Source: a virus. From it: a DNA stretch of 45,293 nucleotides. The notes beneath the pieces were generated by a model. The model was not told where the DNA came from. It saw only the letters and a list, made by a program, of their open reading frames with translations, and ran no database searches. The position numbers and the translations under genes are program-made. This document shows, piece after piece, positions 1 through 31,311 of the stretch. Within the stretch, counting starts at the first letter, position 1. The number at the start of each line of letters is the position of its first letter. The DNA lies in IMG/VR virus record IMGVR_UViG_3300045988_084795. One strand, given 5' to 3'.

Positions 1-76
1 ATCTGTGCGGAGTCCCCAGAGCTACCAATCTTTGCGGAGTCCCCAGAGCTACCAATCTTTGCGGAGTCCCCAGAGT
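1..76. repeat. 27-nt tandem repeat (about 2.8 units), part of the array that spans the contig junction
   Basis: CTTTGCGGAGTCCCCAGAGCTACCAAT-type units are visible directly. They encode SGDSA(K/Q)IGS on the minus strand. Confidence 0.9.
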
Positions 77-1160: not shown

Positions 1161-1955
1161 TTACTCTAGTTGTTTCTGCATTAACTGCATCTCTAAATTA
1201 TCAAAGTCATAGTCTCTCTCGCACTCTAAGACACTTGCAGGATTCCGCTGTGGCTTCGGTTCTGGTGGTTTTTCGTAGTTCTCGTCCAGATAATCCACGT
1301 AACCAGAATTGAAGAATGTACTTCCGTTCTGTGGTTTTCTCCAACTACTGTCCTTAGATAAATCATCTAGATACCTTTTCAAAGCTCTTTCTATTTTTTC
1401 TTCTCCTATCTCATACAGAGTCTTTTTCTTTGTGTCGGATACCTGTCCTTTACCACGTTTATTCGGATACTGTTTCCAGAGTCTTTCAAAACATTCATTG
1501 ATTGCTTTTTTGTTCGACTTTTCGCAATTTTCTTTTGATTTCTCGCAATTTTTCTTTGCGTTTTCGTCTGTTTGTTCCATTTTTCGTTCCACTGTTTGTT
1601 CCATTTTTGTTCCATTTTCAACCACCGTGTTTTCCTCGGTAGTTGTTTCTGCAACTTGTCCACAATCTATGTACTTCTGATACTCATTTACTGTGTATAT
1701 CGTGTATTTATTTGTTCTTTTTGTGGATATGTACCCAGTATCCTTTAGTTTCTTTAGTGCTGTTCGGACCTGCGATTCTGTCAATCCTGTCTCTGCACTG
1801 ATTCTTGTTATAGAAGAAACAAATTGTCCTGCCTTGATTTCTTTTCCGCAGTACCGTTTATCCTCTAAATTTGTATGTAGTAGGCAATGATAAAACAATC
1901 TAAATACATTTTTATTTTCATACCATTCCCAATCTATATTTATATTTATGTTCAT
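1161..1955 (-). CDS. Replication initiator / replisome organiser (winged-helix N-terminus) with internal iterons
   Basis: The N-terminus (FRLFYHCLLHTN...GQFVSSITRISAETGLTESQVRTALKKLKDTGYI) resembles phage replisome-organiser/DnaD-like domains. It sits in the recombination/replication block and carries an embedded repeat array, as with lambda O/ori. Confidence 0.6.
   Translation of the reverse strand: MNININIDWEWYENKNVFRLFYHCLLHTNLEDKRYCGKEIKAGQFVSSITRISAETGLTESQVRTALKKLKDTGYISTKRTNKYTIYTVNEYQKYIDCGQVAETTTEENTVVENGTKMEQTVERKMEQTDENAKKNCEKSKENCEKSNKKAINECFERLWKQYPNKRGKGQVSDTKKKTLYEIGEEKIERALKRYLDDLSKDSSWRKPQNGSTFFNSGYVDYLDENYEKPPEPKPQRNPASVLECERDYDFDNLEMQLMQKQLE
1573..1616 (-). repeat. Four phased GGAAC(A/G) iterons (spacing 11-12 bp) inside the replication gene; candidate origin
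   Basis: The minus strand reads aatGGAACAaaaatGGAACAaacagtGGAACGaaaaatGGAACAaac, which translates as GTKMEQTVERKMEQ. Confidence 0.6.
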
Positions 1956-1992: not shown

Positions 1993-2361
1993 TCATGGAT
2001 AGTCACTTCTATCCGTGGTCTTTTTTTTGTCAATCTCAAAGTTATCTGTAAATCCTTTTACATATTTCCATCCATCATCTGGGAACACTCCTGCTTCTAC
2101 AAGGCTGTCTAAGATATATTTCTTAGCCGATGCAATATTATCGGGATCACGTCTGCGGTTCTGTTCGTACCATGTAATTTCTACACGAACAGGAAATCTT
2201 ATTTCTCTGTCTTTTTCCTTTAATTCATAAGGAATATTGCATCTACAGATTTTCTGATTACTTCTCTTGCATTTTGCTCCCTTATAAGGATTAGTCCTGC
2301 AAGCATTAACGTAAGCATTTAATCCGTCCAGTCTTCCTTGAATCGTATATGTTACAGCCAT
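1993..2361 (-). CDS. rusA: RusA-family Holliday junction resolvase
   Basis: RRDPDNIASAKKYILDSLVEAGVFPDDGWKYV matches the RusA D-x-D-N...K...D-x-L...DD signature. About 120 aa. Confidence 0.7.
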   Translation of the reverse strand: MAVTYTIQGRLDGLNAYVNACRTNPYKGAKCKRSNQKICRCNIPYELKEKDREIRFPVRVEITWYEQNRRRDPDNIASAKKYILDSLVEAGVFPDDGWKYVKGFTDNFEIDKKKTTDRSDYP

Positions 2362-2642
2362 GACTTGCCAAACTCCTTTATAAACTCTTCTCTCGTGCCT
2401 ATCTTTTCTTCAAATGCCTTTTGTGCCATCTTCTTATACATAAGGTCATATCTGGCATCTAAATGTGCGGATTGTTTACCGCCTGTATGGTGTTCGTGGC
2501 ACAACGGAATCACTAAGTTATACTTATCAGCTTTCTTCCTGTTTGCTGTCCCATGTAAACAGTGGTGTATCTCTACATAAGGACTTCCACATAATTTACA
2601 ATGTTCCATATCATCAACGATGATTGACTTTTTCTTTCTCAA
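2352..2642 (-). CDS. Small Cys/His-rich nuclease-like protein (HNH/NinG-like)
   Basis: CKLCGSPYVEIHHCLHG...VIPLCHEHHTG suggests zinc/His-Me finger-like spacing. It overlaps both neighbours, which suggests translational coupling. Confidence 0.4.
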   Translation of the reverse strand: MRKKKSIIVDDMEHCKLCGSPYVEIHHCLHGTANRKKADKYNLVIPLCHEHHTGGKQSAHLDARYDLMYKKMAQKAFEEKIGTREEFIKEFGKSWL

Positions 2643-3186
2643 TCTTAAGTCCCCACCTTTCTTCCATTTCTTTTATCTCCTGCGGTGTCGCTGTTTCTAT
2701 ACCTAATGCCTTTGCTTCCTGCACCGTTCCTTTTATCAATTCAGACATTTCTTTCGTATCGTATGTGTGGCTTCCTCTCATAACAATATTGATTCTAAAA
2801 ATCTTTCCTGCCGTATTGATTGTCGTCTGCGTTGTTGGTTGTAGGTGGCAAAACTCTACGTCGTAAGCTTCTATATCATCATCTAACGGAATAGTTATCA
2901 GCTTTCCGTTTATCTTTTCATACTGCCCATATTCCGCTATCATTTTGTTTTTTATAAACACCTTGCTACAATCCATTACTTCTGCGATTTTTCCAACTAA
3001 TACATGAAAGTATGCATTGGCATCTAAACTCCTGCCCTCACGGTACTGAACAACCTTAAGCCGACATTCTTTATCTTTCAGTCGGTCATATTCCCCTCGT
3101 ATGTCTTTTTCACACACAAGGGAAATAACCTGCTTACCGCTTTCAAAATCAATGGATATATCATGAATTTTGGCTTTAGTTTCCAT
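2614..3186 (-). CDS. NinB/Orf-like recombination mediator (tentative)
   Basis: GRSLDANAYFHVLVGKIAE and the C-terminal ...EMEERWG resemble lambda Orf (RSLDQNRKLWACLGDVS ... WKARWG). It lies next to ERF. Confidence 0.4.
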   Translation of the reverse strand: METKAKIHDISIDFESGKQVISLVCEKDIRGEYDRLKDKECRLKVVQYREGRSLDANAYFHVLVGKIAEVMDCSKVFIKNKMIAEYGQYEKINGKLITIPLDDDIEAYDVEFCHLQPTTQTTINTAGKIFRINIVMRGSHTYDTKEMSELIKGTVQEAKALGIETATPQEIKEMEERWGLKIEKEKVNHR

Positions 3187-3190: not shown

Positions 3191-3826
3191 TCAGCTCCAA
3201 ATCTTTCTTACGTTAGCCTTGTCTTTGTTGGCTACAATGTACTGATATTCTCCCTCGGTAATTTCTGAAATATCTTTATGATGATAAGATGCAAGAATCT
3301 TGTTAATATCAAATGCCATTTCATCACACAGACTCAAAAGTGTGTCCTGTTTGATTTTTGAAATCTTCATAGCTCTGATTGCATCCGCATTGTTATCGTC
3401 TGCTTGCTTGTCCGCTCTTGCTTTGCGTTCTTTTTGATTTTCGTCCGTATCAGCATCTTTTGTATCATCCAGTAAGAAGATTCCATTTAAGGCATACTTA
3501 CGTGCATACGATGATGCCGTTCCTGTTATCTGAGAATCATCCATTCCTTTTTTATTAAGTGCTTCTCTTGCAAGTGCTGTTGCTTCTACGCTTGCTTCTG
3601 TTTCAATGTCCTGCACCTTTACCGTTGCTTTTACATAGACACGATCGCCAACGGCTATTACATCATCTGTTATGTACATTGCAAGCTTCTGTTCTTCCAG
3701 AAGTGGTTTCACAGCTTCTAAGATTCCCTCTGCGTTGCGGTACATATACCCACCGAATGAGTTTCTTAGATTTTTTGGTGCTTTCAATGTTGTCTGAATC
3801 TTCATCATCTTTTCATGTATTGTCAT
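3191..3826 (-). CDS. erf: ERF-family single-strand annealing protein
   Basis: KAPKNLRNSFGGYMYRNAEGILEAVKPLL and GTASSYARKYALNGIFLLDD are hallmark ERF motifs. Confidence 0.8.
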   Translation of the reverse strand: MTIHEKMMKIQTTLKAPKNLRNSFGGYMYRNAEGILEAVKPLLEEQKLAMYITDDVIAVGDRVYVKATVKVQDIETEASVEATALAREALNKKGMDDSQITGTASSYARKYALNGIFLLDDTKDADTDENQKERKARADKQADDNNADAIRAMKISKIKQDTLLSLCDEMAFDINKILASYHHKDISEITEGEYQYIVANKDKANVRKIWS

Positions 3827-7395: not shown

Positions 7396-7652
7396 TGTTT
7401 TTCTTTTTTTGTTTTATTTTTTTCTTTTTAATTAAATATAAATATTAATTATTATAATACTATATAGGTTATATATAACTATAGTCTTTAGATACTATAT
7501 ATTTATATAAAAGAAAATAAAAATACACTAAAAACATTGTTTTGTCAATCACAAATTTAAAAAACTTTTTGCATGGTGCTGAAAACCGCATAAAACCGTG
7601 GTTTCTTGGACTTTAAAAAAAGAAAATGCATAGTTGATTGATGTTTGCCTGC

Positions 7653-7763
7653 GATTTGCCTGTCATTTGCCTGCGATTTGCCTGTGATGCAACTATGCAA
7701 AAAGTCTTGAAAACCTCATAAATACGTGGTTTATTGCCTGCGATTTGCCTGCGATTGTGGTTG
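7653..7763. repeat. 11-bp tandem repeats TTTGCCTG(C/T)(G/C)A: four copies at 7653..7696 and two at 7742..7763
   Basis: Read directly from the sequence. The first block is bracketed by a 10-bp inverted repeat, TGCATAGTTG (7636..7645) / CAACTATGCA (7699..7708). Confidence 0.85.
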
Positions 7764-7802
7764 TCACGTTGCTTGTTATACATTAACAAAAGGAGGAGTA
7801 TC

Positions 7803-8627
7803 ATGAAAAAATCATGTAAATTATTAACTGTGTTTTTACTTGCTGTCACACTGGGCGTTTTTGGAAATTTAAATACAGTAAAAGCAAAATCTAAAATTAA
7901 GATTTCTAACTCAAAAATTACACTTACTGTTAGGCAATCCAAAACATTAAAGGTAAAAGGCACAAAGAAAAAACCTAAATGGTCAAGTAGTAAAAAATCA
8001 GTTGCAACAGTTTCTAAAAAAGGAAAAGTCGTTGCTAAAAAGGCAGGAAGTGCTACTATCACAGCAAAGATTGGAAAGAAAAAATATAAATGCAAAGTAA
8101 CTGTGAAGAATAAAAAGAAAACGCAGAATACAACAAAACCAACCACAACAGTTCCTGCTAATCCTTTAGGTAGCAGAACAAATCCTTATAACCCAAGAAA
8201 CGGTGTTACGATAAATAATTATGGTTCTGTATATTATTTTAAATTAAACGAAGTACGCAAAGGAAACGATGCTATAAATTTATTGAAATCATTCGGGAAA
8301 TGGGGAGAATTTGAACAGGAAGAACTATCTAACAACCCTAACACAAACCTTGTGCTTTTCACGTTTGATGTATCTGCGATCAGTGGATATGACAAGTATT
8401 TTTTAGATGGTTCTGATATATTGAATCCATATTGTTTCTATAATTCATCAGCCACACAAAACTTAGGTGGCGTATCTGCCCTTTATATTGATTGGGAATA
8501 CGACCGTTCAGAAATTAAATTATATAACGGTGGTAGCAGTAAGATGTATGCAGCATTTTTAATTCCAAATAACGTTGCATCTTTCACTTATAGTAACAAT
8601 GGTTACTGGACAAAATATGATTTTTAA
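7803..8627 (+). CDS. Secreted protein with a bacterial Ig-like (Big_2-type) domain; moron next to int
   Basis: RBS AGGAGG. Signal peptide MKKSCKLLTVFLLAVTLGVFGNLNTVKA. The Big_2-like segment is ITLTVRQSKTLKV...WSSSKKSVATVSKKGKVVAKKAGSATITAK. Confidence 0.7.
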   Translation: MKKSCKLLTVFLLAVTLGVFGNLNTVKAKSKIKISNSKITLTVRQSKTLKVKGTKKKPKWSSSKKSVATVSKKGKVVAKKAGSATITAKIGKKKYKCKVTVKNKKKTQNTTKPTTTVPANPLGSRTNPYNPRNGVTINNYGSVYYFKLNEVRKGNDAINLLKSFGKWGEFEQEELSNNPNTNLVLFTFDVSAISGYDKYFLDGSDILNPYCFYNSSATQNLGGVSALYIDWEYDRSEIKLYNGGSSKMYAAFLIPNNVASFTYSNNGYWTKYDF

Positions 8628-8961: not shown

Positions 8962-10215
8962 ATGGCAACAGCTAAATTTAAAAAAGGTAAAGACGGTTAC
9001 TATTCCACTAACGTATGGGATGGCACATACAAGGATAATGGAAAGAAGAGATATAAACACCTGCGGTCCGCTAAAAGCTCTAAGGACCTTGAAAAGAAAG
9101 TAAAGGAATTTGAACGATTAAGGGATGAACGTCGTGGAATCATTGAAACTGACATATTATTTATTGAATATGCTGTACAATGGAGACATTTATACAAAGA
9201 ATTTAGTCGTGCTAATAATACAAACAAAATGTATGAAAACATTATCAACGTACATTTTATTCCGATAGCTTATACCAAATTGCAAGACATTGAGCGAAAA
9301 CATTTCCAATTGCTATTAAACCATGCTACAGGGCATCCACGAACACAACAGCAGATTGCTATGACATTCAAGCAAATATTGCGTAGTGCTGTACGTGATC
9401 GTATTTTCTCCGCTCAAACATTCGCAGACATTTTTGACGATTTTGAGGGAATCAAATATAAAGCAGACGAACAACGTGCTTTGACACCAGACGAACAGAG
9501 AGCCGTTTTTACGGCAGATTTTAAACCAATGGATAAATTGTATGCCTACATCCTTTACGGCTGTGGATTAAGGCGTGGAGAAGCTCTAGCACTAACAGAA
9601 AGTGACTTCGACTTAGAAGCCCATACAGTATCTATCACTAAATCTCACGACATATCAGATAATATTCCTTTTGTAAAAACGGTAAAAAATATAACTAACG
9701 GAGAAAGAATACTTCCAATTCCTAACAGTGTATTTGATTATATAGCCGACTATATATCTATGCTGAGGAAAGACAAAAGAAAATATCTTTTTGTAAACCA
9801 AAACTACAAACCTATGACAAAATCTGGTTTTCGAAGAATGTTTGACAGAATATTAAAAGCTATGCAGGCAGTCAGCCCTAGTATCATCGAGGGATTGACA
9901 AGCCATGTTTTCAGACATAATTATTGTTCTTGCTTATGCTACCAGATTCCAATTATCAGTATTAAGATGGTGGCTAAGTTAGTTGGAGATTCAGAAGAAG
10001 TTGTAATGAAAGTATACAACCATATCATGATGGAAAAAGAAGATAAAGTGTCAGCTGTAAATAATGCATTAAGTTTCGTAGATTTGGAACAAAAAATGGA
10101 ACAACCAGTGGAACAAAAAATGGAACAGCTACAAGATTTATTATCATGGCTTTTTAAGAATGTTTCTGGAACAAAAATGGAACATGGAACACGTATGGAA
10201 CAAATACTTCCTTAA
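8962..10215 (+). CDS. int: Tyrosine integrase, with a roughly 60-aa C-terminal extension encoded by an iteron array
   Basis: Motifs GLRRGEALAL (catalytic Arg), HVFRHNY (H-x-x-R) and KVYNH (Tyr). RBS AAGGAG. Adjacent to the attP-like tRNA fragment. Confidence 0.9.
   Translation: MATAKFKKGKDGYYSTNVWDGTYKDNGKKRYKHLRSAKSSKDLEKKVKEFERLRDERRGIIETDILFIEYAVQWRHLYKEFSRANNTNKMYENIINVHFIPIAYTKLQDIERKHFQLLLNHATGHPRTQQQIAMTFKQILRSAVRDRIFSAQTFADIFDDFEGIKYKADEQRALTPDEQRAVFTADFKPMDKLYAYILYGCGLRRGEALALTESDFDLEAHTVSITKSHDISDNIPFVKTVKNITNGERILPIPNSVFDYIADYISMLRKDKRKYLFVNQNYKPMTKSGFRRMFDRILKAMQAVSPSIIEGLTSHVFRHNYCSCLCYQIPIISIKMVAKLVGDSEEVVMKVYNHIMMEKEDKVSAVNNALSFVDLEQKMEQPVEQKMEQLQDLLSWLFKNVSGTKMEHGTRMEQILP
10086..10202 (+). 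repeat. Eight GGAACA iterons in two blocks within the 3' end of int
   Basis: Copies at 10086, 10098, 10110 and 10122 (12-bp phasing), and at 10168, 10179, 10186 and 10197. They translate as EQKMEQPVEQKMEQ / GTKMEHGTRMEQ. Confidence 0.8.
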
Positions 10216-10295
10216 ACTTTTAAATACTTTCGGTTACTTTAAGGGTATGATTTTTAGACAGGTCATACCCTTAAAAACTGTATAAATACAAGAAA

Positions 10296-10331: not shown

Positions 10332-10335
10332 AAAG

Positions 10336-10383
10336 TGAGCGTGCGGGGATTCGAACCCCGGACAACTTGATTAAAAGTCAAGG
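10336..10383 (-). other. attP core: 3' part (anticodon arm to discriminator) of a tRNA-Lys(UUU) gene
   Basis: The minus strand reads CTTGA-CTTTTAA-TCAAG / TTGTC / CGGGG-TTCGAAT-CCCCG / CACGCTC-A. There is no D-arm or 5' acceptor strand upstream. It lies between int and the lysis genes. Confidence 0.75.
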
Positions 10384-10433
10384 AATCAAATCTATGTTAA
10401 ACCGCATAAACTCTATTGTTCTCAATTTTGGTT

Positions 10434-10450
10434 GGAACGAAAATGGAACA
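10434..10450 (+). repeat. Two more GGAAC(G/A) iterons on the other side of the attP core
   Basis: The sequence reads ttGGAACGaaaatGGAACAtt. Confidence 0.6.
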
Positions 10451-10499: not shown

Positions 10500-11255
10500 C
10501 TACTTTTTTCGATTTTTTTTCAAAGCCGTGCAAGTTTTCTTTCCTGCATATGTTCCAGACGTGTTCCATCCTAACTGTTTCCAGTATTTCTTCAAGGCTT
10601 GCATTGTCTTTGTTTTCCAGATTCCGTCAACCGCTAATGGATGTTCGTTTGCATATGTACAATTTGCGTTCAGCTTCTTTTGTAACCACTTGATCGCATT
10701 CTTGGAAGAGTTCTTTTTTACAACGCTGTATGATACTTTTACGTTATCATATTTAGGTCGTCCATATCCTGCGATACGACTATTGCCTAAAGCATAAGAC
10801 TTCTTGCACACTGCACCACCGTTTGGAATAACCGCTTCTCCATTGCTTGTGTTTCCCTCGACCGTGAACACCATCTCATCTGTGACTGCATACACAATTC
10901 CAGTGTGGCAGATTCGTGTTGAGTTCTTGAAAAAAATCTGGTCTCCAACCTTTGGTGTTTTATGCCATTGGTCATTGTCTTTGAATTTTTGTGCTGATGT
11001 TGGAGTGTATGCACTAAATCCATGTAAAAGATTTTTTGCTACATCCCTGCCGTACGCCTGCACCATGCACCAGTCAACAAACATGTCGCACCAGTAAGCA
11101 TCTGGACCGTTAATGCCAAAGTATGCTCCATACTTAGTGTAGTTGTTGCTACCTGCGTTCTTTGTCTTGCTGTTCAGATTCTTATTGCTTTTCTTCTCTA
11201 AGTATCCAACTTCTCCTTTGGCTACTGTAAGAAACTTGTCTACTGTATTCGCCAT
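10500..11255 (-). CDS. Endolysin: N-terminal CHAP-type peptidase/amidase plus a C-terminal peptidoglycan-binding domain
   Basis: CHAP Cys context AYWCDMFVDWC and His context ICHTGIVY. The C-terminal part, AIKWLQKKLN...LAVDGIWKTKTMQALKKYW, is PG_binding_1-like. Directly downstream of the holin. Confidence 0.85.
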   Translation of the reverse strand: MANTVDKFLTVAKGEVGYLEKKSNKNLNSKTKNAGSNNYTKYGAYFGINGPDAYWCDMFVDWCMVQAYGRDVAKNLLHGFSAYTPTSAQKFKDNDQWHKTPKVGDQIFFKNSTRICHTGIVYAVTDEMVFTVEGNTSNGEAVIPNGGAVCKKSYALGNSRIAGYGRPKYDNVKVSYSVVKKNSSKNAIKWLQKKLNANCTYANEHPLAVDGIWKTKTMQALKKYWKQLGWNTSGTYAGKKTCTALKKNRKK

Positions 11256-11256
11256 A

Positions 11257-11526
11257 TTAGTTCTCCTTTTTGTACTCGATTACCTCTGCAATATCTGTCT
11301 TATTCTTTGCAAGCTCGCTGTCTCCGATACCGCTTGTTGTTGGGTCTACCAATACACCCACCGCTACTAAAATATTAAGGATGATACCTACAAGCTGTGT
11401 TACTGCATCCTGTGCGATTGGTGCTGTGATACCTAAGATTCCTAAAATCTGATAGATAAATGCGATTAAGGCAGAAGCTAATGCCACCAGTGTTGCTTTA
11501 TTTTTGAAACGTAATTTTAAATTCAT
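11257..11526 (-). CDS. Holin (phi-LC3 / Phage_holin_1-like)
   Basis: Two TM segments followed by VLVDPTTSGIGDSELA, typical of this holin family. Immediately upstream of the lysin. Confidence 0.8.
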   Translation of the reverse strand: MNLKLRFKNKATLVALASALIAFIYQILGILGITAPIAQDAVTQLVGIILNILVAVGVLVDPTTSGIGDSELAKNKTDIAEVIEYKKEN

Positions 11527-11610
11527 AGTTTCTCCTTTCGTTTGTTGAGGTTTTATGTTAATATGTAGTTGGAGATTTTTTAGTCTTTAATCTCCATTTG
11601 TAATTTATTT

Positions 11611-11640
11611 ACACCTTGCTTCGTGCAGGGTGTTTTTTAT
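11611..11640 (+). terminator. Plus-strand terminator-like hairpin abutting the outer inversion repeat
   Basis: ACACCTTGC (11611..11619) pairs with GCAGGGTGT (11625..11633; one G-U pair), then TTTTT. Confidence 0.4.
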
Positions 11641-11664
11641 TTTCTACGTTAAATAGTGATTTAA
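11641..11664 (+). repeat. Inversion repeat copy A (24 bp, perfect inverted copy of 12589..12612)
   Basis: TTTCTACGTTAAATAGTGATTTAA encodes (F)STLNSDL in the same frame as the tail-fibre copy. Confidence 0.9.
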
Positions 11665-11933
11665 ATGGGTTACATTTTGCAATCGTCAACATATCTGGTC
11701 GTACAGATGCTAATGGTCAAATATGGGTTAGCTCTCCTGTATCAAAATCAGAAATATCATTTATTGATATTATTGGAACCGTTAGAGATACTGGAAGCCT
11801 GCCGTTTATGATAATTTCTCTAAAAGATTTCGATGGAGACAATACGCTTGTTTTTCGCTGTATTGCAACAAACAATTCGACATTCAATTACAGGGATATG
11901 GACACAAAAGTTCTAATTGCGTACAAAAACTAA
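11664..11933 (+). other. Silent alternative tail-fibre C-terminal cassette 2 (89 aa), with no start codon or RBS of its own
   Basis: The frame is open immediately after repeat A. The only upstream in-frame 'start' is a TTG with no RBS, inside the terminator stem. Confidence 0.6.
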
Positions 11934-11937
11934 GGAT

Positions 11938-11951
11938 AATAGTGATTTAAC
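11938..11951 (+). repeat. Inversion repeat copy B (14-bp core AATAGTGATTTAAC)
   Basis: Identical to the inner 14 nt of the tail-fibre copy (minus-strand reading). Same reading frame (NSDL-T). Confidence 0.6.
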
Positions 11952-12246
11952 TTATAAAAAGATTGCATCAAATATTCCAAGTTCAACAAAATATACAATT
12001 CCAAGTGAATATAAAATGGCAATTCTTGTTGCAACGATTAATTATCCTAATGCAATAAGTCCACAATTTACGTTTATATTTCCAAATTTAACAGAAACAA
12101 AGAATATATCTGATGGTTACTGGTATGACAACACTTATCACGCAAGCTTTATGGCATGCAACAATGGAAATGTTGTTTACTTTGCTTCAAATTGGCAAGT
12201 AGTGTCTCCAACAGGTACAGTTACTTATGATGTTTATGCAAGGTAA
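11950..12246 (+). other. Silent alternative tail-fibre C-terminal cassette 3 (98 aa), with no start of its own
   Basis: The frame is open directly after repeat B. The first ATG is 22 codons in. Its stop (12244..12246) lies one nt from the stop of the convergent expressed cassette (12248..12250). Confidence 0.55.
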
Positions 12247-12247
12247 G

Positions 12248-12802
12248 TTAATTATCAAATACGATTCCACCTTGGTCTATATATACTCTAGGTGGAGCAA
12301 TTACCGTATAATATCCCCATTGTGGGAGATTACAAATTTGTATAGACGTACCGCTTGCACGGCAATACACGTTACTAGATATAATGTTTGATGTGCCGTC
12401 AATTTTAACGTTTGAACCACTTACATTTACTGTAATTAGAGAGCATATTGGACTTCCATTCCCGTTTCCATAAAGAAGCAAAGCAAACTTATCACATGTT
12501 TTTTGAACTGTAGTATAGTTTTCTATTGATATATAGAAATCATTACCAGAACCACTTGTTTTTAGCACAATGTTCCTTGATCTATTTGTTAAATCACTAT
12601 TTAACGTAGAAATATCTGAGTGTATTTTACTTATACTATCTTCTATATTTCCAATCCCTAATTTAGTTTTTATCAGAGACACGATCGTTGACCACTTAAC
12701 CTTACTGGCGGTACTCCCACCAGTAAGCATGTAATCATCATCTGATATTGTCTTTTTCTCTGTTAAATCCGATATATGTACTAAAGGTATATTGATTGCC
12801 AT
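12248..12802 (-). CDS. Tail fibre / receptor-binding protein: constant N-terminus (aa 1-71) plus the currently expressed C-terminal cassette 1 (aa 72-184)
   Basis: RBS AAGGAGTG. Positioned after the tail tip protein and before the lysis genes. The constant/variable junction coincides with the 24-bp repeat. Confidence 0.65.
   Translation of the reverse strand: MAINIPLVHISDLTEKKTISDDDYMLTGGSTASKVKWSTIVSLIKTKLGIGNIEDSISKIHSDISTLNSDLTNRSRNIVLKTSGSGNDFYISIENYTTVQKTCDKFALLLYGNGNGSPICSLITVNVSGSNVKIDGTSNIISSNVYCRASGTSIQICNLPQWGYYTVIAPPRVYIDQGGIVFDN
12589..12612 (-). repeat. Inversion repeat copy C, inside the expressed tail-fibre gene
   Basis: The reverse complement equals 11641..11664 exactly. Confidence 0.9.
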
Positions 12803-12813
12803 AACATCACTCC

Positions 12814-13011
12814 TTAATTCAACTTGTTTTCTCTGACGTAGCTTCTGATAGCATCAATGTGCTTTTTAAGTTCTTTATCTACTACCCAGAAATTTTCTTT
12901 TTTATTCTGTGACAATGGTTCTCCTGTGTTATCGTCAATCTCATTGTATGTGTATGATACTCTGTCTCCACCGTCAATATTTAATACCATAAAACTACTC
13001 AACTGTTTCAT
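12814..13011 (-). CDS. Small hypothetical tail-module protein
   Basis: Co-oriented 65-aa ORF whose start overlaps the end of the upstream gene. Confidence 0.5.
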   Translation of the reverse strand: MKQLSSFMVLNIDGGDRVSYTYNEIDDNTGEPLSQNKKENFWVVDKELKKHIDAIRSYVRENKLN

Positions 13012-16000
13012 TTAAAATTTCCTCCTGCTCTTTAATTAAATCGCTGATTTCTTCCATATATTCTTTCTCATAGTCAATCACTTCTTCTTTTTCTGAGTTA
13101 TCGAATTTTTCAAGTCGTTCAAATTCGTAATCTTTCTGAATTGCTTTGATTTCCCACGAAAACTTAAGATTTTCAGTACCTTTTACGGCAAAGTAGCTAT
13201 CGGTCTTTTCTTCTACCCATAAGTCGCCTTTGCCCTCTTTCTGCAAGAATACTTGGTACTCAACACCTATGTTTACTGTCTCTGAAAATATATCGTCAAT
13301 GTCTATGTAACATTTTCCTGTATTATCAGTACATCCAGAACCTATATCCCCAAAATATGGGGTTGCTGTTTCGTAACAATACTGCTTTCTTGTATCGTAA
13401 TTTTCTGTATCTATGATTCTGTTTTTTGTTCCTGCAACAGACAAATTACCGCCAATAGTAACTGGCTGAAAAAAACTTGATTTTTCTTTTCCAAAATGAA
13501 ATTTATATTCACTTACCGACCCAAGATAAAGTGATTCATCCGTCATATGCATTGTTATGTCTGTCTGTACTGTAATTGGTCCACTGCTGTTATTTTTTAA
13601 TACAATCTCATCTGGGGACAAAATCGCACATGCACCAGTTCCATCCTTGTTTTCAGATAAATATATACCACCGAACACGTCTGGTGTTATACACACATAT
13701 GATATTGGCTTTTCTCCCATGCCTGATATATAATGCGTTACGACTATCCCTTTCGTGTTTATGTCAACAATTTCATTGTCATTTGCATCATAAACGTGCA
13801 TTTGTCCATTACCGTACGTGTTTGCTTTTCCACCAAGATTTAATGTTCCACCTCTAGCATAAGTAAAGTTGATATACAACTTACCGTCAGACCCACGATA
13901 AATACCTTGCCATGCTCCGTCGTTGGTCAGCAGATTGAATATATCTTCGTGAGTCAGTGCATCTACGTCAATGGCTACTGGAATTGTCTCAATATCCAAC
14001 ACCTGTGAAAATCCACCTGCGGCATACATCGTACACCTTAACGCTGTAAGATTTCTTGAGATACCGATACCACTTGAACCGCTTGCTGTGATACCACTTG
14101 AACCACTCGCTAGTACAGAGTACAGTGCGTGTGTAATGTCCGTTTCATCTGAAGATGAAGTATAAACGGTCGTGTATGTATCTCCGTCAGTTGTTTCCTC
14201 AATCTTGAATCGGCACTTATAGGCTGTACGTGCTGTTGCTGTACCGTCACGGTAGTAACCAGATAATGTAATGTAGTTCGGCACAATCGTGTTGTCCGCA
14301 GACATTTTCACGATACTTGACGATGTTTCCATGAAGTACGTTCTTCCTGCACTTCCTTGCGGACCAGTTGCTCCCGTATTCCCTTTTTCTCCCTGTGGTC
14401 CTGTTGCCCCTGTCTCTCCCTTGATTCTTGCCCAAGTGTAAGAAGCTACTGTCGTTGGGTCGTTTAGGTTGTAATTCGTACAAGTACCAATGTAATCTCC
14501 TACCGTTTCGCCAGAATTGGAAGTAAAAGTTTTTCCACCATCGTTTGAGTATTTGATGTGAAGATAAGATGTTTTTCCATCAATACCGTTAGTACCTGCG
14601 ATACCCTGCGTACCTTTTTCTCCCTGTAATCCTTGGAATCTTGCCCATGTATATTTAGATGGGTCGTTTGAGTCGGCTTCTGTAAAGTCCACGTATGTTC
14701 CAATATAGGTAGATGGGGTTTCAGTCATTTGAGAAGCTGTTGTAGGTTTTGCAACAGAGCTGTACTTAATGTGGAAATATGTTGTAGCTCCACTAGCACC
14801 CTGCGGGCCTCTGATACCCTGTTCTCCCTGCGGTCCTTGGATTCCTTGTAACCCCTGTGGTCCTTGGTCTCCTTTTTCGCCTTTTTCTCCTTGCGGTCCT
14901 GTCGCACCAGTGTTACCTTTCTCTCCCTGTGGCCCTTGCGGACCAGTAGCACCAGTTTCTCCCTTTGCACCTGTTTCTCCAGGAATACCGCCTTTTAATT
15001 TCGCAATGTCAAATCTTTTCGTAACTGAATAAGTATTAAGATAATTTGCTGTAATATCCACCCATCCAACATCTGTTGTTAATGCTGTCACAGTGTAGGT
15101 ATGAGTTGAATTATTCCAAGAACCTACGACACCGCTTGACTTCTGCACGTTGTAAGTACAGTCGTTAGATATATCAGTATGACCGTATAAAACCTGTGCT
15201 GTCGTGTGGCACTCTGGAAATGATGTATATTCTCCCTTATAATCTGTCGTGATTGCTTGATAATCGTTGTCCAGATTGATAATCATTGCACGAGATTTTC
15301 TCGCTTCTTCCAGTGCCTTGTTAGCAGTCTCATCATCTGTGTATTTATTAAGTTTCTGCCAGTCAGTTTCCACATAACTTGCACCCTCTCCCCTTGCTAC
15401 AACGCAAGTAAGGATGTCTCCGTTCTGTCCTTGATTCCACATATCGCCAGTATCATAAGGTGGTGTAGGCTGTGTCAAAAATACACGACATTTACTGTCT
15501 GCTGTGGACTGTGCGAAAGATGCTGTCCTTAATGCTTTTGTAACGTCCGTGTCTTGTACTAACTGCCACTTCCATGTGTCGCCATCTTTGAAGAATCTGT
15601 AGGCATATCCTTTAGATTTCCAATAAAATAAGTCTCCCTCATGCTTCTTTTTATCATCTTCTGTTGTCCAGTCAGAAGCAGGGATATTTTTTAATGTTGG
15701 TTCGTAATCGTAGTAGAACGTCTCAATTTGTCCGTCTATCTGGTTCTGTAGGTCCGCTACACTTTTTGTAACTGTTTCTGCAAAATCTGATACTTTACCA
15801 TCTGCGTAGTTCTTAGATTCTTTCACAGCATCACTAATTGCTTCTGGTGCTGTTTTGCCACCAATCGTGACGTTGTCCCCAGAAATCTTTACAGTACCAG
15901 TCTCCATATCTGCATAGAAGATAATATTTCCAGATTTATCTTTGACTGTTAATGCACCAGTGTTGATATAATCTGCATTGATTCCCTCTGTATAAAGCAA

Positions 16001-17362
16001 TCTTGCTACCATTTCCCCAGTGATCGTGAATCCATAAGGATATGTCTTACCGCCATCTATAGAAAATCCAATAACCTCTGCTGTCAATTTGATAACATTC
16101 TTTGATTCTTTCATTGTTGGTTTATCATGGAGATAATATATAGTTGAACCATCCAATAGCACTTCCTGTGTTGAATACATTCCGTTACTATTTTTTAATG
16201 CTTCTTGCATCTTATCTACAGCATTTTGACGGTTATTTCTTTCCTGCTCAACTAACTGTTTCCCTTGTATGATCGCTTTTTGATTACTTGATGTGTAGTT
16301 GCTCTGGTTACGCAATGGAGATTCTGCACTATTCTTTAATGTTGTATATCCGAAGAATACAAAGTTTACATCTGTTAATACAGAATAGAAGCTATTTTCT
16401 CTCCAATCTGTAACTTTAATCTTATCCATAAACTCTGCTATTGGATAAGATATATAGTCCATCGTAAAAGCTCTAAAAGTCACATTTCCAAACTTTTCAT
16501 AAATCCACGAAATAAGTGTCTCTTCATGCCCTGTTACAAGTGGATTCTCTACAGATAAAACATAACCATCTTTACCAACTTGTACCGTTTTTTCTGTGTC
16601 ACTTGTATTGCCATCATCATCGGTTGTAGTAACCTTTCGTGTCATTCGTACGCCTGTTACCTGCACATCGTTCGTATCACTTGTCAGTTTATTGTAATCA
16701 ACCAATTTATGAATATCCTCACTATCATAATCAAAATCATAGGTCATTATCTGTAATCGCCCTGTGCGGTCAATTCTTGCATTTCCGCAGGCAATCATTG
16801 CAATAAATCCTATAATTTGTCGGTGTGTATACTCACTAGATGGCATGGTTGGTATCTGGAAGTCATTATGTAAAAAGTTACTATTTCCAATCAAGATACC
16901 GCAGGTATCACAACTATCAATTAGCACACTCTTTGCTGTCGCAGGGAATGTCAATGTTGTGCTGTATGTCTTATCTGCTTTATACATATCATCGTATCCA
17001 ACAATCGTTACAACACTTCCGTAGGTTTCTGGTTGAGTGACGGTAAATATACCGTATTCAATTTTTTCTATCGTTGATGATAATTCAAACGTCAGATATA
17101 GTCTGATTTTTGCTCCAAAGAAATCATAATCAGATAAGTGTTCATCGTCATTCATGATTTCTAACTGTACATTACGGCTGAGTGCAACACCTAAAGGAAT
17201 GGTGTTAGCACCTGCCGAATCAACAAGACTATTGTTATCTATTGAAAAATCATCTTCTCCTAATGGCAGTACAGTTCCATTCGCAAGCGTTACTTCTGCA
17301 TTGCATTTAAAATCTTGTCGTTCTGTCATTAGCTGTTTAAATTCATCACTTACATTTATCAT
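12995..17362 (-). CDS. Tail tip / tail-associated protein (prophage tail endopeptidase-type N-terminus) with collagen-like G-X-Y tracts and a C-terminal fibre domain
   Basis: 1455 aa, located directly after the TMP and Dit-position genes. Three G-X-Y blocks (e.g. [43 protein letters not shown]). The module ..Y(F/L)HIKYS...YIGT...DP..Y(T)WAR is duplicated. Confidence 0.85.
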   Translation of the reverse strand: [1455 protein letters not shown]

Positions 17363-17752: not shown

Positions 17753-20700
17753 CTACGCAAGGCTGAATGGATTTCTACCATTACTCATTTGTCTTAGTTT
17801 TGCTTCTTCGATAAATTCATCAAACAACGTCCTGCGGTTAATCTGTGCTGTGAAGTGATAATCTCCACCGTTGTTACCGCTGTTGTCTGATTCTAAGGAC
17901 TTCATAACAGATAATAGCTGTTCTAGTAGATTAAGTACGTCATTGTTATTGCTATCTGTACTGTGTTGCTTTTGTGCGATCACTGCGGATGCTTTCGCAG
18001 GTATTACCGCTCCACTTGCTACATATGGTGCTGTAAATGGTACATTTGCCAACTGTTTAGATTGGTCTAATAATGTATCAATCGTATCTGGGAAAGCTTT
18101 TTCAAGACCTACTGTGATACCTGCAGGTATCATCTTACCTACCGTATCTCTCATAAGTCTTGATGGAGAATGGATTCCAAAGAAATCTTTTACTGCGTTC
18201 CATGCTTCTTTTGCAAGGTCCATCATTTTATTTACAAGTCTGTATGCATTGTTTCCAACACCTTGAACAATTCCCTTTACAACATTTAGTCCAACGCTTC
18301 CCCAGTTCATTTCTGAGAAAACTGTTTTCATCTTTCTGATAGCTTCTTTCACTGGACTGTCAGAGTTTCCTGCCATCAAACTTTTTAGCTTTTTCAGCCC
18401 GCCAACCATCTTGTCTCTTACATTTTCGACTTTATCAACAACGCCTTGCTTCTTCTCTTCAAATGTGTTCTTGACATTTTTCATGGCATCGCTTGCATGC
18501 GTGCCAAAGTTAGATATAACTCCTTTGAATCCGTCAGACACACTATTTTTCACTGCTTCCGCTTTCGCTTTAACAGTTGATAAATTCTGACCACTTAGAT
18601 TATCTCTAATTTTTGACATTGCGTCATTTCCAAACTGTCTAAACTTTTCAACGACACCGCTTACATTATCTTCAATCCCATACCTTAATGTACTTGCTGT
18701 TGATTTAACAGTTTCAATACCGCCAGAAATCTTTTCTTGCAGTCCGTTGACAATTCCTTGTCCCCATGTTTGAGCATTTTCTGGTAATTTTTCTATTCTT
18801 TCTTTGATGCCATCTCTTAAATCTCCTGCTTTTTCTTTCACAGATTCCCAACCTTTTTTGATTGTTTCTCCTGCTTTTCCTATGCCGGATGCAACGGTAT
18901 CAAATCCACTCTTTAATTTTTCCCATGCACCTTTGGCAAATTCTGCAACCTTTCCTGCGACTGCTTTGACCTTATCCCAGTTTAATACGATAAGTGCAAC
19001 TCCTGCGACTATCGCAGCAACAATAACTCCTGCCGGAAAAGTGAAAAGTGCAGCTAAGCCACTTAATGCTGTTCCTATCATAGATACAAATGAACCAATC
19101 GCAGGTATTAACGTTGTTGCAAGTATTCCCTCTGCACCAAATATAGCTACTAATCCTGTCGAAAGGCCACTTGCGATTGTTCCAATAATTCCACCGCCAC
19201 CAGATTTTCCAAGTGCTAATATGATATTCGCTAATAAGCTTTTTCCAGTAAGCATTTTAGAAAAGCTTCCTGCCAAATTGATTGCTCCAATCGCTGTACC
19301 AAGTGCTAACGCTAATTTTCCTGCTGTTGTACTTGATAAACCAGAAATCAAACCGCCAAGAACATTTTTTATAATTGTGAATACTTGACTAAAGATTGTA
19401 CCCCAGTCAATATTGTTTAGGAATGTTCCAATTCCTCTTCCAAGTCCATTCCAATCGGTGTTTTGTGCAACACTAGCAAACACACCTAACAGACTTGTCA
19501 CTGCATCACTTAACGTCTGCCCTGCCGTTGCCCAATCAATTCCTTGAATCATAGCATTAAGACCATTAGTGATGTTCTTTGCAATTCCAGACCAATCCAC
19601 TGTCTTTACAAACGCTCCTAACGTTGCAAATGCTCCGTTGATTCCTTTTACTAACGTATCGGCAATTGTTGTGAAATTAACTTTATCAAAGATTCCATTA
19701 ACAAGATTTCCTAGAGATATTCCAAGTTCTTCCCAACCAGTCAACCCAAGATTTCTTTTTCTTGACATATCAGAAACAAATCCGTTAAAGATATTCCATG
19801 CAATCATAAATTTGTTCCCAAACAGATTTCCTAAGTTGGTCCAATTTACCTCGTTAACTAATCCGCGGAATCCTACTGAAAATTTAGTTCCGAGATTTTT
19901 CCAGTCGATACCCTCAATTAAAAGATTCATTGTATTGACAAGTGTATTAATACCTGCACCTATAGTTCGTCCGAGCAAATCCCAGTCAATGTGATCTACA
20001 AGACTATTGAACGTCCGTGTAAATGCATTTACAAAATAAGTTATCTTTGGACCTACATTATTCCAATTGATAGCATCATAGATTTTTTGCAATCCTTTAT
20101 TGATACCGCTTGCGATATATGCTCCAAGTCCTTCCCAATCTTCGTCCTTAATCAACTTTCGGATTTTATCTGCTATTCCTTTGATAGAACTAGCAATTGG
20201 TACTTCTTGGAACATATCCGATGGACTAAGTCCACCACCGCCACCACCTACGCCACCGCCACCGCCGGTACCAGGTGTTGTGTCGGAATCATCTTTGTTC
20301 TTTTTCTGGAACTGTCTGATTTCATCAAGACCAGATAGATATGTCTGGTTCTCTTTGTTTGCTTTCTTTGTGGCATTGGCGTTTTTCTTGCTTGCTTTCG
20401 CTGCATCATTCGATGCCGATGCCGTACTTCCTAAAGATGCAGCATAGTCTTGTTGCACCCCTACAGCTTTTGTAAATGTCTTTTGCCCTGTCAGTGCTGC
20501 AATAAACATTCCTACATAGGTTAATGCCTTTGATATTAAGTTAATCAACGTAACTAATGCAGGAGCTATCGCTGTAAGAATCGGACTAAACGCCGTTGCA
20601 AAACTGTTTTTTAATCGTGTCAGTGCCGACATCAAAGATGATAGTGCTGCATTTGTGCGATTGGAATACTGTGCTAGATTCTGCATACCGCTTGCTACCG

Positions 20701-22036
20701 CAGCATTGACTTTACCAATCATTCCAAACACGGTCGAATATAAGATACTCATACCAACCATTCGACCAATCGAAAAACGTGCATTATCAGCACTTTGTGA
20801 TGTATTAAGGAAGCTTGTTACAAGACTTCCAATTCTCTTTCCAACACTAAGAGCGGATGAACCAACTTTTTTTAATACATTTCCAAGCTTGCTAATACCA
20901 CTTGATAAAAGTGTTGCAAGTATTCTTGTTTTGCTTAATTTTCCGTTTGTTTCCGCTACTTTGCTTCCGATATTGGTGTAAGATGAACCAAGTTTTCCAT
21001 TTGTTCCAACAAGGCTTCTTTCTTTTGCATCAGTCTTAGATATTTCCTTATTTAATGCATTTAAGGCTTTCTCGCTTTCTTCTGATGCTGTCTTTGCGTA
21101 GTTCCCTGTAATCGGTGCGGTACGTACTTTTTCTGTTGGTTGTGCGGTTGTTGTTCCGCTGTCTAGCTGTTTTTTCTTCGCTAGTAATTCGTCATATTGT
21201 CTGCCGAGCTTTTCCGCAGCACTCTCCAATGCTAAAAATGCATGGGAAGAAGTTGCATTCTGATTTCTTGCAAAGATTTCTTGCTGTGCTGTTGCTACCT
21301 GTTCAAATTGTGTATCAAGACGTTGCAAGGAATCTTCAAGAATCTGATATGCTGTTGTCTTGATATTTGAATTGCTGATTTCATCCTGCAATTGTGTTGT
21401 TTGTCCTAAATTGGTGTTTAAGGATTCAACACTCGTTTCTGTACCTGTGATTTCTGCATTTAATTTTTGTAATGCTTTTGCACTCTCTTCGCTTGCAAGA
21501 CCTGTTCCACCAGTAAGCTTTGCACTTTTAGGTAGACCACTGTCTGTACTCGCTGTCGGTGCTTCTAACTGCTTTTTCTTTGCAAGAAGTTCTTCGTATT
21601 GCTGATCTAGTTTAGCCGCTGCACTTTCCATTGCTTGAAACGCAGAAGAAGAAGTCACACTTTGATTTCTGTTAAATACATCCATCTGTGCTTTTTCCAA
21701 CTCTGCAAGCTTCTGTCCTGTGGTTTCTATTGCTTTATCTAACGTATCAAGTGCAGTCGTCTTAATGTCGATGTTATCAAGCTTCTTTTCTGCCTGTGCG
21801 GTCTTTTCCAGTTCCTTAGCCACGGTCTTTGCTTTTTCTTCGACAACGTCCATGCCTTTTGTATCTGGTGCTTTTATACCGCCACTCATGGCTTTTTCCA
21901 TTGATTTCCCAATGGTTTTCACTTGATTTGATAAACGTTTTAAAAGGGATGCAATTTCTTTCACACTTGCTTTTGCTTCGGTCGTATCAATTTCTGTTTT
22001 GATATAAATACTTCCATCCGCTTTTTGTGTAGCCAT
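17753..22036 (-). CDS. Tape measure protein
   Basis: 1427 aa. Coiled-coil N-terminus, a central hydrophobic/Gly-rich region, and a position after the two chaperone genes. Confidence 0.9.
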   Translation of the reverse strand: MATQKADGSIYIKTEIDTTEAKASVKEIASLLKRLSNQVKTIGKSMEKAMSGGIKAPDTKGMDVVEEKAKTVAKELEKTAQAEKKLDNIDIKTTALDTLDKAIETTGQKLAELEKAQMDVFNRNQSVTSSSAFQAMESAAAKLDQQYEELLAKKKQLEAPTASTDSGLPKSAKLTGGTGLASEESAKALQKLNAEITGTETSVESLNTNLGQTTQLQDEISNSNIKTTAYQILEDSLQRLDTQFEQVATAQQEIFARNQNATSSHAFLALESAAEKLGRQYDELLAKKKQLDSGTTTAQPTEKVRTAPITGNYAKTASEESEKALNALNKEISKTDAKERSLVGTNGKLGSSYTNIGSKVAETNGKLSKTRILATLLSSGISKLGNVLKKVGSSALSVGKRIGSLVTSFLNTSQSADNARFSIGRMVGMSILYSTVFGMIGKVNAAVASGMQNLAQYSNRTNAALSSLMSALTRLKNSFATAFSPILTAIAPALVTLINLISKALTYVGMFIAALTGQKTFTKAVGVQQDYAASLGSTASASNDAAKASKKNANATKKANKENQTYLSGLDEIRQFQKKNKDDSDTTPGTGGGGGVGGGGGGLSPSDMFQEVPIASSIKGIADKIRKLIKDEDWEGLGAYIASGINKGLQKIYDAINWNNVGPKITYFVNAFTRTFNSLVDHIDWDLLGRTIGAGINTLVNTMNLLIEGIDWKNLGTKFSVGFRGLVNEVNWTNLGNLFGNKFMIAWNIFNGFVSDMSRKRNLGLTGWEELGISLGNLVNGIFDKVNFTTIADTLVKGINGAFATLGAFVKTVDWSGIAKNITNGLNAMIQGIDWATAGQTLSDAVTSLLGVFASVAQNTDWNGLGRGIGTFLNNIDWGTIFSQVFTIIKNVLGGLISGLSSTTAGKLALALGTAIGAINLAGSFSKMLTGKSLLANIILALGKSGGGGIIGTIASGLSTGLVAIFGAEGILATTLIPAIGSFVSMIGTALSGLAALFTFPAGVIVAAIVAGVALIVLNWDKVKAVAGKVAEFAKGAWEKLKSGFDTVASGIGKAGETIKKGWESVKEKAGDLRDGIKERIEKLPENAQTWGQGIVNGLQEKISGGIETVKSTASTLRYGIEDNVSGVVEKFRQFGNDAMSKIRDNLSGQNLSTVKAKAEAVKNSVSDGFKGVISNFGTHASDAMKNVKNTFEEKKQGVVDKVENVRDKMVGGLKKLKSLMAGNSDSPVKEAIRKMKTVFSEMNWGSVGLNVVKGIVQGVGNNAYRLVNKMMDLAKEAWNAVKDFFGIHSPSRLMRDTVGKMIPAGITVGLEKAFPDTIDTLLDQSKQLANVPFTAPYVASGAVIPAKASAVIAQKQHSTDSNNNDVLNLLEQLLSVMKSLESDNSGNNGGDYHFTAQINRRTLFDEFIEEAKLRQMSNGRNPFSLA

Positions 22037-31094: not shown

Positions 31095-31237
31095 TAGGTT
31101 GAGATAAAATTGAGGAACACATATATGATTTGATAAAACCAGTTTAGTGTCATGATGAAAAATGAAAAATTCAAAACCAACAAAATCTTTACTTTGAGGA
31201 AATTTAAAAATTTCTTATGCCCACAACAGTGAGCAAA

Positions 31238-31311
31238 TGGAAGCAACAGGACTCGAACCTGTGACAGGTCGGTTATGAGCCGACTACTCTGACCAACTGA
31301 GTTATACTTCC
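31238..31311 (-). tRNA. tRNA with anticodon CAU (Met elongator, or Ile2 if lysidine-modified), 74 nt, no encoded CCA
   Basis: Hand-folded cloverleaf. Acceptor arm GGAAGTA/TGCTTCC (one G-U). D arm ACTC-AGTTGGTCA-GAGT. Anticodon arm GTCGG-CTCATAA-CCGAC. Variable loop CTGTC. T arm ACAGG-TTCGAGT-CCTGT. Discriminator A. Confidence 0.85.

Follow-up and report, generated by a model that had tools for sequence, protein, structure and literature searches.

A probable multiple-inversion switch for the tip of a distal-tail protein, with no dedicated invertase gene, in a temperate phage family of human-gut Lachnospiraceae

In the 45,293-nucleotide viral record IMGVR_UViG_3300045988_084795 (the window, by which we mean that whole stretch of DNA), the gene of a small distal-tail protein lies next to silent alternative 3′ ends, which arrangement we regard as very probably constituting a multiple-inversion switch, or shufflon, for the C-terminal head of that protein. 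By analogy, the logic of the locus would be that of the shufflons of the Min (p15B) and Rin type, and in the literature searched we found no description of this system itself.

The Rin shufflon, comprising five cassettes, was described in the dnaJ2-integrated prophages of Bifidobacterium breve and Bifidobacterium longum and also in prophages of Eggerthella lenta (Mavrich et al. 2018, PMC6109161; PMC8778435). Like the locus in the window, Rin belongs to temperate siphoviruses of Gram-positive gut bacteria, joins a constant N-terminal segment—in that instance belonging to a receptor-binding-protein gene—to dissimilar small C-terminal cassettes, each preceded by a short asymmetric repeat, exhibits multiple inversions among prophages, and poses the same conundrum of directly oriented sites. 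Rin differs, however, in having a dedicated armless tyrosine-invertase gene (rin) beside the cassettes in addition to an integrase, whereas here there is none in either the window or its relatives; in its 11-bp rix site, which is TTCCCTAACCC (PMC6109161) as against AATAGTGATTT(AA) here; and in its hosts, which are Actinobacteria rather than Bacillota (Lachnospiraceae). Furthermore, the receptor-binding proteins of TP901-1 and 1358 to which the Rin work refers (PMC6109161) have no homologue that we could detect in the cassettes or the N-terminus of the present protein. In the tRNA-Met-integrated bifidophages 689b-1 and Bb423phi2 there is a second inverted locus without a flanking recombinase, for which an invertase acting in trans was proposed (PMC6109161). 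There, as here, the 3′ end of a structural gene is inverted at a short repeat with no recombinase beside the locus; but the bifidophage inversion is a single flip of ~500 bp at an 8-bp repeat in two genomes, whereas here two to four cassettes, from at least seven families, occur in dozens of genomes, in all the isomers and with heterogeneity within assemblies. The family analysed here is a much richer and better-documented case of a phage inversion with no recombinase beside it, in a different phylum.

Tail-fibre C-termini are also switched at a constant/variable boundary by Min of p15B, by Gin in the G segment of Mu, by Cin in the C segment of P1, and by Pin of e14, and Min likewise has several cassettes and many isomers. 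Those systems nevertheless belong to myoviruses of Gram-negative hosts and carry an adjacent serine invertase, whereas none is encoded here. The Gin, Cin, and Min systems use 26-bp sites (gix, cix, and mix) along with a Fis-bound enhancer; to our knowledge, the crossover site described below bears no apparent resemblance to the gix/hix consensus. The R64/IncI1 shufflon (Rci, sfx, pilV) is comparable in its multiple inversions, in its constant 5′ part with several 3′ ends, and in the conservation of only one of the two arms of its sites, but diversifies a plasmid pilus adhesin by means of the dedicated and adjacent tyrosine recombinase Rci, whereas here the gene is of a phage tail region and there is no second tyrosine recombinase. 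We know of no relationship between the sfx sequence and the present site. The first-pass annotation of the window had held both its three cassettes and its Gram-positive host to be departures from the known switches; neither is new, in view of Min of p15B and the five-cassette Rin for the former and of the Bifidobacterium and Eggerthella prophages carrying Rin for the latter (PMC6109161, PMC8778435).

The switched gene, labelled a tail fibre, is an open reading frame (ORF) of 184 amino acids (12248..12802, minus strand), whose residues 1–71 end in ...HSDISTLNSDL, with STLNSDL occupying residues 65–71. The part that never moves is the constant 5′ segment (12613..12802, minus), comprising residues 1–63 plus the first base of codon 64, which segment adjoins the gene of a conserved 65-amino-acid protein, in unchanged orientation, in all 78 related loci. 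Next comes the N-side crossover site (12589..12612, minus), encoding (I)STLNSDL and containing the core AATAGTGATTTAA at 12589–12601. A repeat search paired those 24 nucleotides, at 100% complementarity, with the outer crossover site (11641..11664, plus), the fixed boundary of the invertible region. The inner site (11938..11950, plus) is an exact copy of the core, and belongs to a 19-nucleotide inverted pair (11938–11956 with 12583–12601, 89%) in which the inner copy is exact over 14 nucleotides. With up to one mismatch allowed, the 13-nucleotide core has exactly three copies in the 45,293 bp (11652 and 11938 on the plus strand, 12589 on the minus), as against a chance expectation of 0.18, and three copies were reached in none of 100 shuffles. 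The crossover-site dyads are GTTAAATAGTGATTTAAC-like, the full dyad of the N-side site being of 18 bp (GTTAAAT-AGTG-ATTTAAC), and in all three copies AAT AGT GAT TTA reads N-S-D-L in the frame of the downstream cassette.

Three cassettes are thereby delimited: C0 (family T0; 12248..12588, minus; 113 amino acids plus stop), which is the one currently expressed, and the silent cassettes B (family T1; 11951..12246, plus; 98 amino acids plus stop) and A (a rare one; 11665..11933, plus; 89 amino acids plus stop). Neither A nor B has an in-frame start or a ribosome-binding site of its own, the sole listed "starts" being TTGs within a hairpin or within the preceding cassette. The stops stand back to back, B reaching 12246 and the stop codon of the oppositely directed fibre gene beginning at 12248, and no similarity among the three tips was found by BLASTP (best E 0.69). 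The hairpin and its T-run (11611..11640, plus) abut the outer site from outside the invertible segment; the hairpin proper, at 11611–11633, together with that T-run forms the only terminator-like site in 11200–13100 (dG −14.4 kcal/mol, z −4.7), and in the relative L142 the corresponding place is taken by a hairpin whose sequence is not the same. The locus displays generic features of phage tail-fibre inversion switches, namely a constant 5′ segment on the minus strand, promoterless alternative 3′ ends, C0 on the minus and A and B on the plus, and one short site in a common codon phase ahead of each cassette, inverted with respect to the expressed copy. The first-pass annotation had already reported the 71-residue N-terminus, the perfect 24-nucleotide inverted copy, the 14-nucleotide core at 11938..11951, the common reading frame, the two plus-strand frames without a start or ribosome-binding site (11664..11933 and 11950..12246), the unrelated tips, the stop-to-stop packing, and the plus-strand hairpin abutting the outer repeat, all of which stood up to re-examination.

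Related loci, 78 in number, were obtained by scanning IMG/VR with the fibre; each was anchored on the 65-amino-acid gene and the holin gene, neither of which changes orientation, and the N-terminus, cassettes, and sites were then placed. All four arrangements that are possible from three active sites were found among genomes 95–99% identical in these parts: type I, N-T0 / <T1 <T3 <T5 (L002–L012, L014, and L020); type II, N-T5 T3 T1> / <T0 (L023, L024, L028, and L031); type III, N-T5 T3> T0> <T1 (L025 and L026); and type IV, N-T1> / <T0 <T3 <T5 (L029). Five other cassette sets occur in two or three orientations each (L013/L030/L032; L017-18/L036; L021/L037; L015-19/L038-40; L142/L198), so that six sets in total show at least two. 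The T0 cassette, C0 in the window, is found among the relatives in both the expressed and the silent state, and cassette B follows the N-terminus as its expressed tip in L029, L030, L036, and L037 as well as in the called proteins P0097 and P0109, both of the T1 type and 169 amino acids long, which is the size predicted for an N–B fusion here. Called proteins with the same N-terminus end also in T5 (P0103 and others), T6 (P0100), T7 (P0102), and further tips (P0101 and P0105), and the cassette (head) families in the phage family amount to at least seven. The comparison with related phages that the first-pass annotation had proposed as a check thus provided all four isomers along with reciprocal junctions, and its reading that inversion would fuse the constant N-terminus in frame to other tips is borne out by the relatives.

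The junctions themselves indicate how the arrangements are interconverted. The left flanks stay put (…GATATTTCTACG at the N-side site, …TTTATTTATACG at the outer), while the right flanks—AACAAATAG for T0, TTCAAG for T5, and AACTTATAAA for T1—swap between the two sites. In a reciprocal exchange, for example, TTTCT..core..AACAAATAG and TTTAT..core..TTCAAG become TTTAT..core..AACAAATAG and TTTCT..core..TTCAAG. When all the recombinant junctions are taken together, the crossover is confined to TAGTGATTT, which is the asymmetric centre of the 18-bp dyad; and TTTTTATTT[A/C]TACGTTAAATAGTGATTT at the outer site is kept in the relatives regardless of the cassette downstream. The core encodes N-S-D-L in all copies of the window and in cassettes of the families T0, T1, and T6, and N-S-D-F where relatives carry T5 or T7, and crossovers at the inner sites took place within a shared identity of only 9–12 bp. 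Because so little sequence is shared, the same breakpoints are used in every lineage, and the products are reciprocal, we conclude that the recombination is conservative and site-specific; and that the cassettes are inverted is a reading strongly supported by the related genomes, as judged from their sequences.

According to the mechanism that we propose, the promoter-proximal constant segment (residues 1–63) would end in a coiled-coil encoded in part by the crossover site itself (STLNSDL), and each alternative head cassette opens with a copy of that site, always in one codon phase. An exchange between the N-side site and one pointing the other way would then invert the intervening DNA and bring a new cassette into frame. 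In the window, where the three sites delimit the segments [C0> <B] and [<A], four isomers would be formed, expressing N–C0 (the present state), N–B, or N–A. Recombination between direct sites also takes place and deletes cassettes, the inner site of the window being the scar of one such event.

Signs of switching within single samples are found in the assemblies. Contig 3300029483_000020 bears an N–T5 junction at one end and an N–T0′ junction at the other, and therefore both junctions were present in that one metagenome. Moreover, the contigs of L047, L050, L058, and L061, three of them of 40–48 kb, stop precisely at ...AATAGTGATTT, where the sequence shared by every cassette runs out. Those of L042 and L046 (42–43 kb) stop at ...ATTTAA(C), where the sequence shared within the group of T0, T1, and T6 does so. 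Since the 24-bp repeat is shorter than the usual k-mers of metagenome assembly, we infer that such breaks mark true branching in the read data, and the switch would account for the interruption of these phage assemblies at a single exact position.

The closest relative of the window, the prophage L199 within a host contig of 107 kb, shows 99.3% identity to it over 1013 aligned bases, and its cassettes number four (C0, B, T6, and A). Compared with that locus, the window lacks exactly 173 bp (T6 plus one site; L199 1620–1793). As the end points of the missing unit lie in direct AATAGTGATTTAAC sites, the inner site of the window (11938–11951) is a hybrid, the scar of a deletion between direct repeats, and the recombination system is not limited to inversion but produces deletions too. 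The three-cassette description is accordingly right for the window, although as a secondary state, the nearest relative carrying four. Decayed cassettes or sites are encountered elsewhere as well, in the form of a truncated T3/B in L015, a mutated T3 core in L002, and in L044, with further decay or a single fixed tip in L044, L045, and L060. In L002 (6860–7140) and other type I relatives the T3 cassette, whose core is changed to AATAATGATTT, has no stop of its own and reads via a duplicated linker (NRDLMHTLISDL) into the next cassette, which arrangement might be a two-domain tip or a decaying cassette. More distant relatives in the N-terminus (the contexts of P0119 and P0101) have fixed tips, accompanied in some by a β-helix tailspike, and lack both shufflon and invertase. 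In L147 and L148, which are relatives in Anaerostipes hadrus metagenome-assembled genomes (MAGs), and in L143–L146, the same N-terminus carries a fixed tip, followed in some by a 723-amino-acid β-helix (tailspike-like) gene; since these relatives do without a shufflon, the distal-tail module is exchangeable within the family.

As regards the proteins, AlphaFold2 (AF2) modelled the C0 head as a β-sandwich (pLDDT 82–89) after a helix spanning the site and cassette A as a compact β-sandwich (pLDDT 81, pTM 0.72), while the full-length model has a low-confidence N-terminus and a long helix at residues 50–76 that includes the site-encoded heptad. Of the three tips whose structures the first-pass annotation proposed to predict, those of C0 and A have the appearance of head domains, but the models matched no known fold at E ≤ 1e-3; the best weak matches were to the receptor-binding tip of the R2 pyocin fibre (6ct8, E 0.075) and to Mtd-N-domain phage proteins. 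The label "tail fibre" is similarly sustained by gene position and predicted architecture, though by no homologue in Pfam or PHROGs. We suggest, from that position and the predicted shape rather than from homology, that the switched protein binds receptors, and by extension that switching may change the host range. Several of these results weigh against the shufflon as we interpret it: the inversion of the window's own copy is deduced from the sequences of relatives; the switched protein has no Pfam or PHROG match, and the fold searches with the fibre and cassette-A models fell short of significance; and the N–A junction had no exact match in the protein collection, the viral contigs, or the metagenome contigs. 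Hence, of the two fusions foreseen by the first-pass annotation, the N–B type of junction is found in relatives, but N–A was found nowhere that we searched.

To identify the enzyme that would operate the switch, we scanned every ORF of at least 150 amino acids, and many shorter ones, against Pfam, PHROGs, or NCBIfam. A single site-specific recombinase emerged, the tyrosine integrase Int (8962..10215, plus; PF00589, 3.9e-17; phrog_1, 8.5e-53), which in NCBIfam gave only generic, sub-threshold Xer-like matches and no specific match to the invertase families. Among the scanned ORFs of this complete genome there was no serine recombinase or other member of the resolvase family, no second tyrosine recombinase, and no reverse transcriptase of the kind found in diversity-generating retroelements, the variation here consisting in discrete unrelated cassettes and not in A-to-N mutagenesis. 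In the window, the stretch from the cassettes to the holin is free of ORFs. Likewise, no recombinase gene stands between the 65-amino-acid gene and the holin in any relative, nor within the ~8 kb of host flank at either of two integration contexts. The claim that the phage has neither a Gin/Hin-type invertase nor a second tyrosine recombinase, but only Int, holds for the complete genome.

The attP core (10334..10383, minus), as read from the sequence, corresponds to a tRNA-Lys(UUU) gene over its 3′ portion, which runs from the anticodon arm as far as the acceptor end; no complete tRNA is predicted there by ARAGORN, and the 50-nucleotide block is invariant in 11 relatives. The 12-mer TTTATGCGGTTT (variant TTTATACAGTTT) flanks that core on both sides (10275–10286 and 10399–10410) and is conserved in the relatives. 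A third exact copy is located at 7583–7594 (minus), upstream of the Big_2 gene. Such repeats probably serve for the binding of Int or of an accessory protein. Clusters of TGGAAC(A) are found at 10085–10202, 10433–10450, 10552–10568, and 1561–1618, that is, as eight copies in the 3′-terminal part of int, which give the protein an unusual C-terminal tail of MEQK repeats, as further copies beyond the attP core, and as four copies within the HTH ORF 1161..1955; which clusters look like iterons or arm-type binding sites shared by attP and a possible origin.

As to the enzyme, we incline tentatively, and by a narrow margin, to Int over a host protein, with Int acting on the shufflon sites as simple core-type sites. 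Int is the sole candidate in the complete genome and occurs wherever the shufflon does; in addition, an 18-bp dyad with an asymmetric centre suits a tyrosine recombinase, and products of inversion and of deletion are both seen. It is quite possible, then, that a single arm-type tyrosine integrase performs both the integration at tRNA-Lys and the shuffling of the tail tip at unrelated 13-bp dyad sites, and that under such a dual function the inversions and the occasional deletions might require no dedicated invertase. There is, however, evidence to the contrary: the attP core agrees with the site at 8 of 17 positions in our own alignment, which is about what chance would give; no copy of TTTATGCGGTTT within an edit distance of 2 is present near the shufflon, from which the TGGAAC clusters are absent also; and relatives without a shufflon carry an equally similar Int. 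Homologues of Int at 66–99% identity, with an identical attP core, occur in every relative having enough flank, with or without a shufflon, and on that account the presence of Int was rejected as a correlate of the shufflon. An apparent resemblance of the outer-site flank to the TTTATGCGGTTT repeat did not survive counting.

The best-surviving alternative, which we consider a serious though still doubtful contender, leaves the shufflon mechanism as it is and has a host-encoded invertase of the tyrosine or serine family act in trans. Such an enzyme would account for the absence of a dedicated invertase from the phage, for a site unlike attP and with no attP-flanking repeat nearby, and for shufflon sites that are invariant while Int varies between 66 and 99% identity; furthermore, the dyad, with its central non-palindromic GT, might suit a serine recombinase as well. 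RecV of Clostridioides difficile is one trans-acting invertase among gut bacteria. The globally trans-acting Mpi of Bacteroides fragilis is another precedent (PMC6109161), and for the second bifidophage locus Mavrich et al. themselves proposed an invertase in trans (PMC6109161). Nonetheless, no host copy of the site came to light: a scan of species-representative genomes with the 17-mer ACGTTAAATAGTGATTT gave 62 single matches in unrelated taxa, where ~70 are estimated by chance, only one of them having a weak Int-like match and none being a prophage or a host inversion locus. To this must be added the recombinase-free host flank at both integration contexts, the requirement for the enzyme in every permissive host, and the deletion between direct sites, which enhancer-dependent serine invertases do not normally yield. 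An unrecognised phage protein as the enzyme appears improbable to us.

That the locus in this genome is a frozen relic whose cassettes no longer switch we judge to be unlikely. One cassette has already been deleted from the window, cassettes and sites have decayed in some relatives (L015, L002, and L044), and cassette A was not found expressed in the protein collection or in the viral and metagenome contigs: its three protein clusters are all silent-position, and its carriers are only five contigs (the window, L141, L142, L198, and L199). But the two outer sites still match perfectly as inverted repeats over 24 bp, the core of the inner site has no mismatch, and the open frame of each of the cassettes A, B, and C0 is intact. 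Cassette A, moreover, is under purifying selection (dN/dS 0.10–0.25 versus L141 and L142), and its position is the outer one in the window, L141, and L199 and an inner one in L142 and L198, which latter two carry their cassette-A shufflons in two orientations. The sample of L199 is ERZ791785, that of L141 ERR11029080, and that of L142 ERZ27279575.

Still less probable, and by a good deal, is that the arrangements are historical accidents of general or phage homologous recombination at a short linker. The phage does encode an ERF protein (3191..3826), a NinB/Orf-like protein (2614..3186), and RusA (1993..2361), the two outer sites have 23–24 bp in common, and deletions between direct copies do occur. 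The 9–12 bp within which the inner-site crossovers fall are nevertheless far below the homology usually needed for that process, identical breakpoints are met with in all six cassette sets, the in-frame core is preserved throughout the cassette families, and both junctions coexist in one assembly while contigs break exactly at the point of divergence. Finally, although gene callers give ORFs of 95–108 amino acids whose start, a TTG or an ATG, falls around the hairpin or the site (P0121–P0123), there is virtually no chance that A and B are independent small plus-strand genes, because those ORFs have neither a ribosome-binding site nor a conserved start, their "N-termini" are translated terminator hairpin, a plus-strand terminator lies directly upstream, and—by which fact separate genes with their own starts were ruled out—the same cassettes are fused in frame to the constant N-terminus elsewhere.

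With respect to the setting of the locus, both ends of the window carry one common 27-bp tandem array, and the window is therefore a complete circular genome of 45.3 kb, with a G+C content of 37%. The array unit is ATCTTTGCGGAGTCCCCAGAGCTACCA, in ~10 copies after closure of the circle (window 1–75 and 45095–45293). The phage is temperate, with a siphovirus-type genome, and belongs to human-gut Lachnospiraceae; the hosts named for prophage forms are Lachnospiraceae bacterium OM02-26, a cultured lysogen with the accession GCA_003481805.1, and an A. hadrus MAG. Among the modules recognised are the small and large terminase subunits, the portal region, a minor head protein, the scaffold, the capsid, a Gp15-like tail chaperone, and, by position, a tape-measure candidate of 1427 amino acids (17753..22036). 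Then come a tail protein of 1455 amino acids, which contains collagen-like repeats and whose gene precedes the shufflon (12995..17362, minus; phrog_6616 "tail protein", 1.4e-208; PF01391); the conserved 65-amino-acid protein (12814..13011, minus; phrog_18444), which is 100% identical in most relatives; the switched 184-amino-acid gene; the silent cassettes; the holin (11257..11526, minus; PF04531, 1.2e-18), the fixed downstream anchor of the locus in all the relatives; and a CHAP endolysin. Also recognised were attP, Int, a secreted protein with a Big_2 domain, and a repressor pair of the M78/HTH type. Searches of the INPHARED phage records with DNA and protein queries from the locus gave zero matches, and a search of the viral contigs with cassette B retrieved only the same phage family.

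A few other features deserve mention. The gene of the Big_2-domain secreted protein (7734–8627, plus) is placed between the repressor module and int, a position typical of lysogenic conversion, and a similar gene is present in the host flank at one integration context (L189 and L194). A 281-amino-acid protein (37288–38133, minus) combines an N-terminal double zinc ribbon with a C-terminal AcrIC5 anti-CRISPR domain (PF22147, E 3e-19), and a tRNA-Met gene (31237–31312, minus) lies within the head-gene region amid several small ORFs. On one 136-kb scaffold, L189 and L190 are two prophage copies ~44.6 kb apart, with attP and Int after one copy and host genes after the other, which configuration indicates a tandem double lysogen.

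Human-gut metagenomes commonly contain this phage family, whose expressed tip protein alone is indexed in ~250 blocks of the protein collection, and the prevalence of the family, together with the missing invertase, constitutes the main interest of the system. A. hadrus and related Lachnospiraceae are major butyrate producers. The compact crossover site and the small interchangeable head domains without known homologues are new material. The lack of a dedicated invertase leaves two likely sources for the activity, an integrase that doubles as an invertase or a switch of phage tropism run by the host; and, were the latter the case, the phage would be outsourcing its tropism switch to the bacterium. 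If, as we believe, the tip is switched in a programmed manner among at least seven head families, then the host range of such a prophage would be the property of a population and not a fixed trait.

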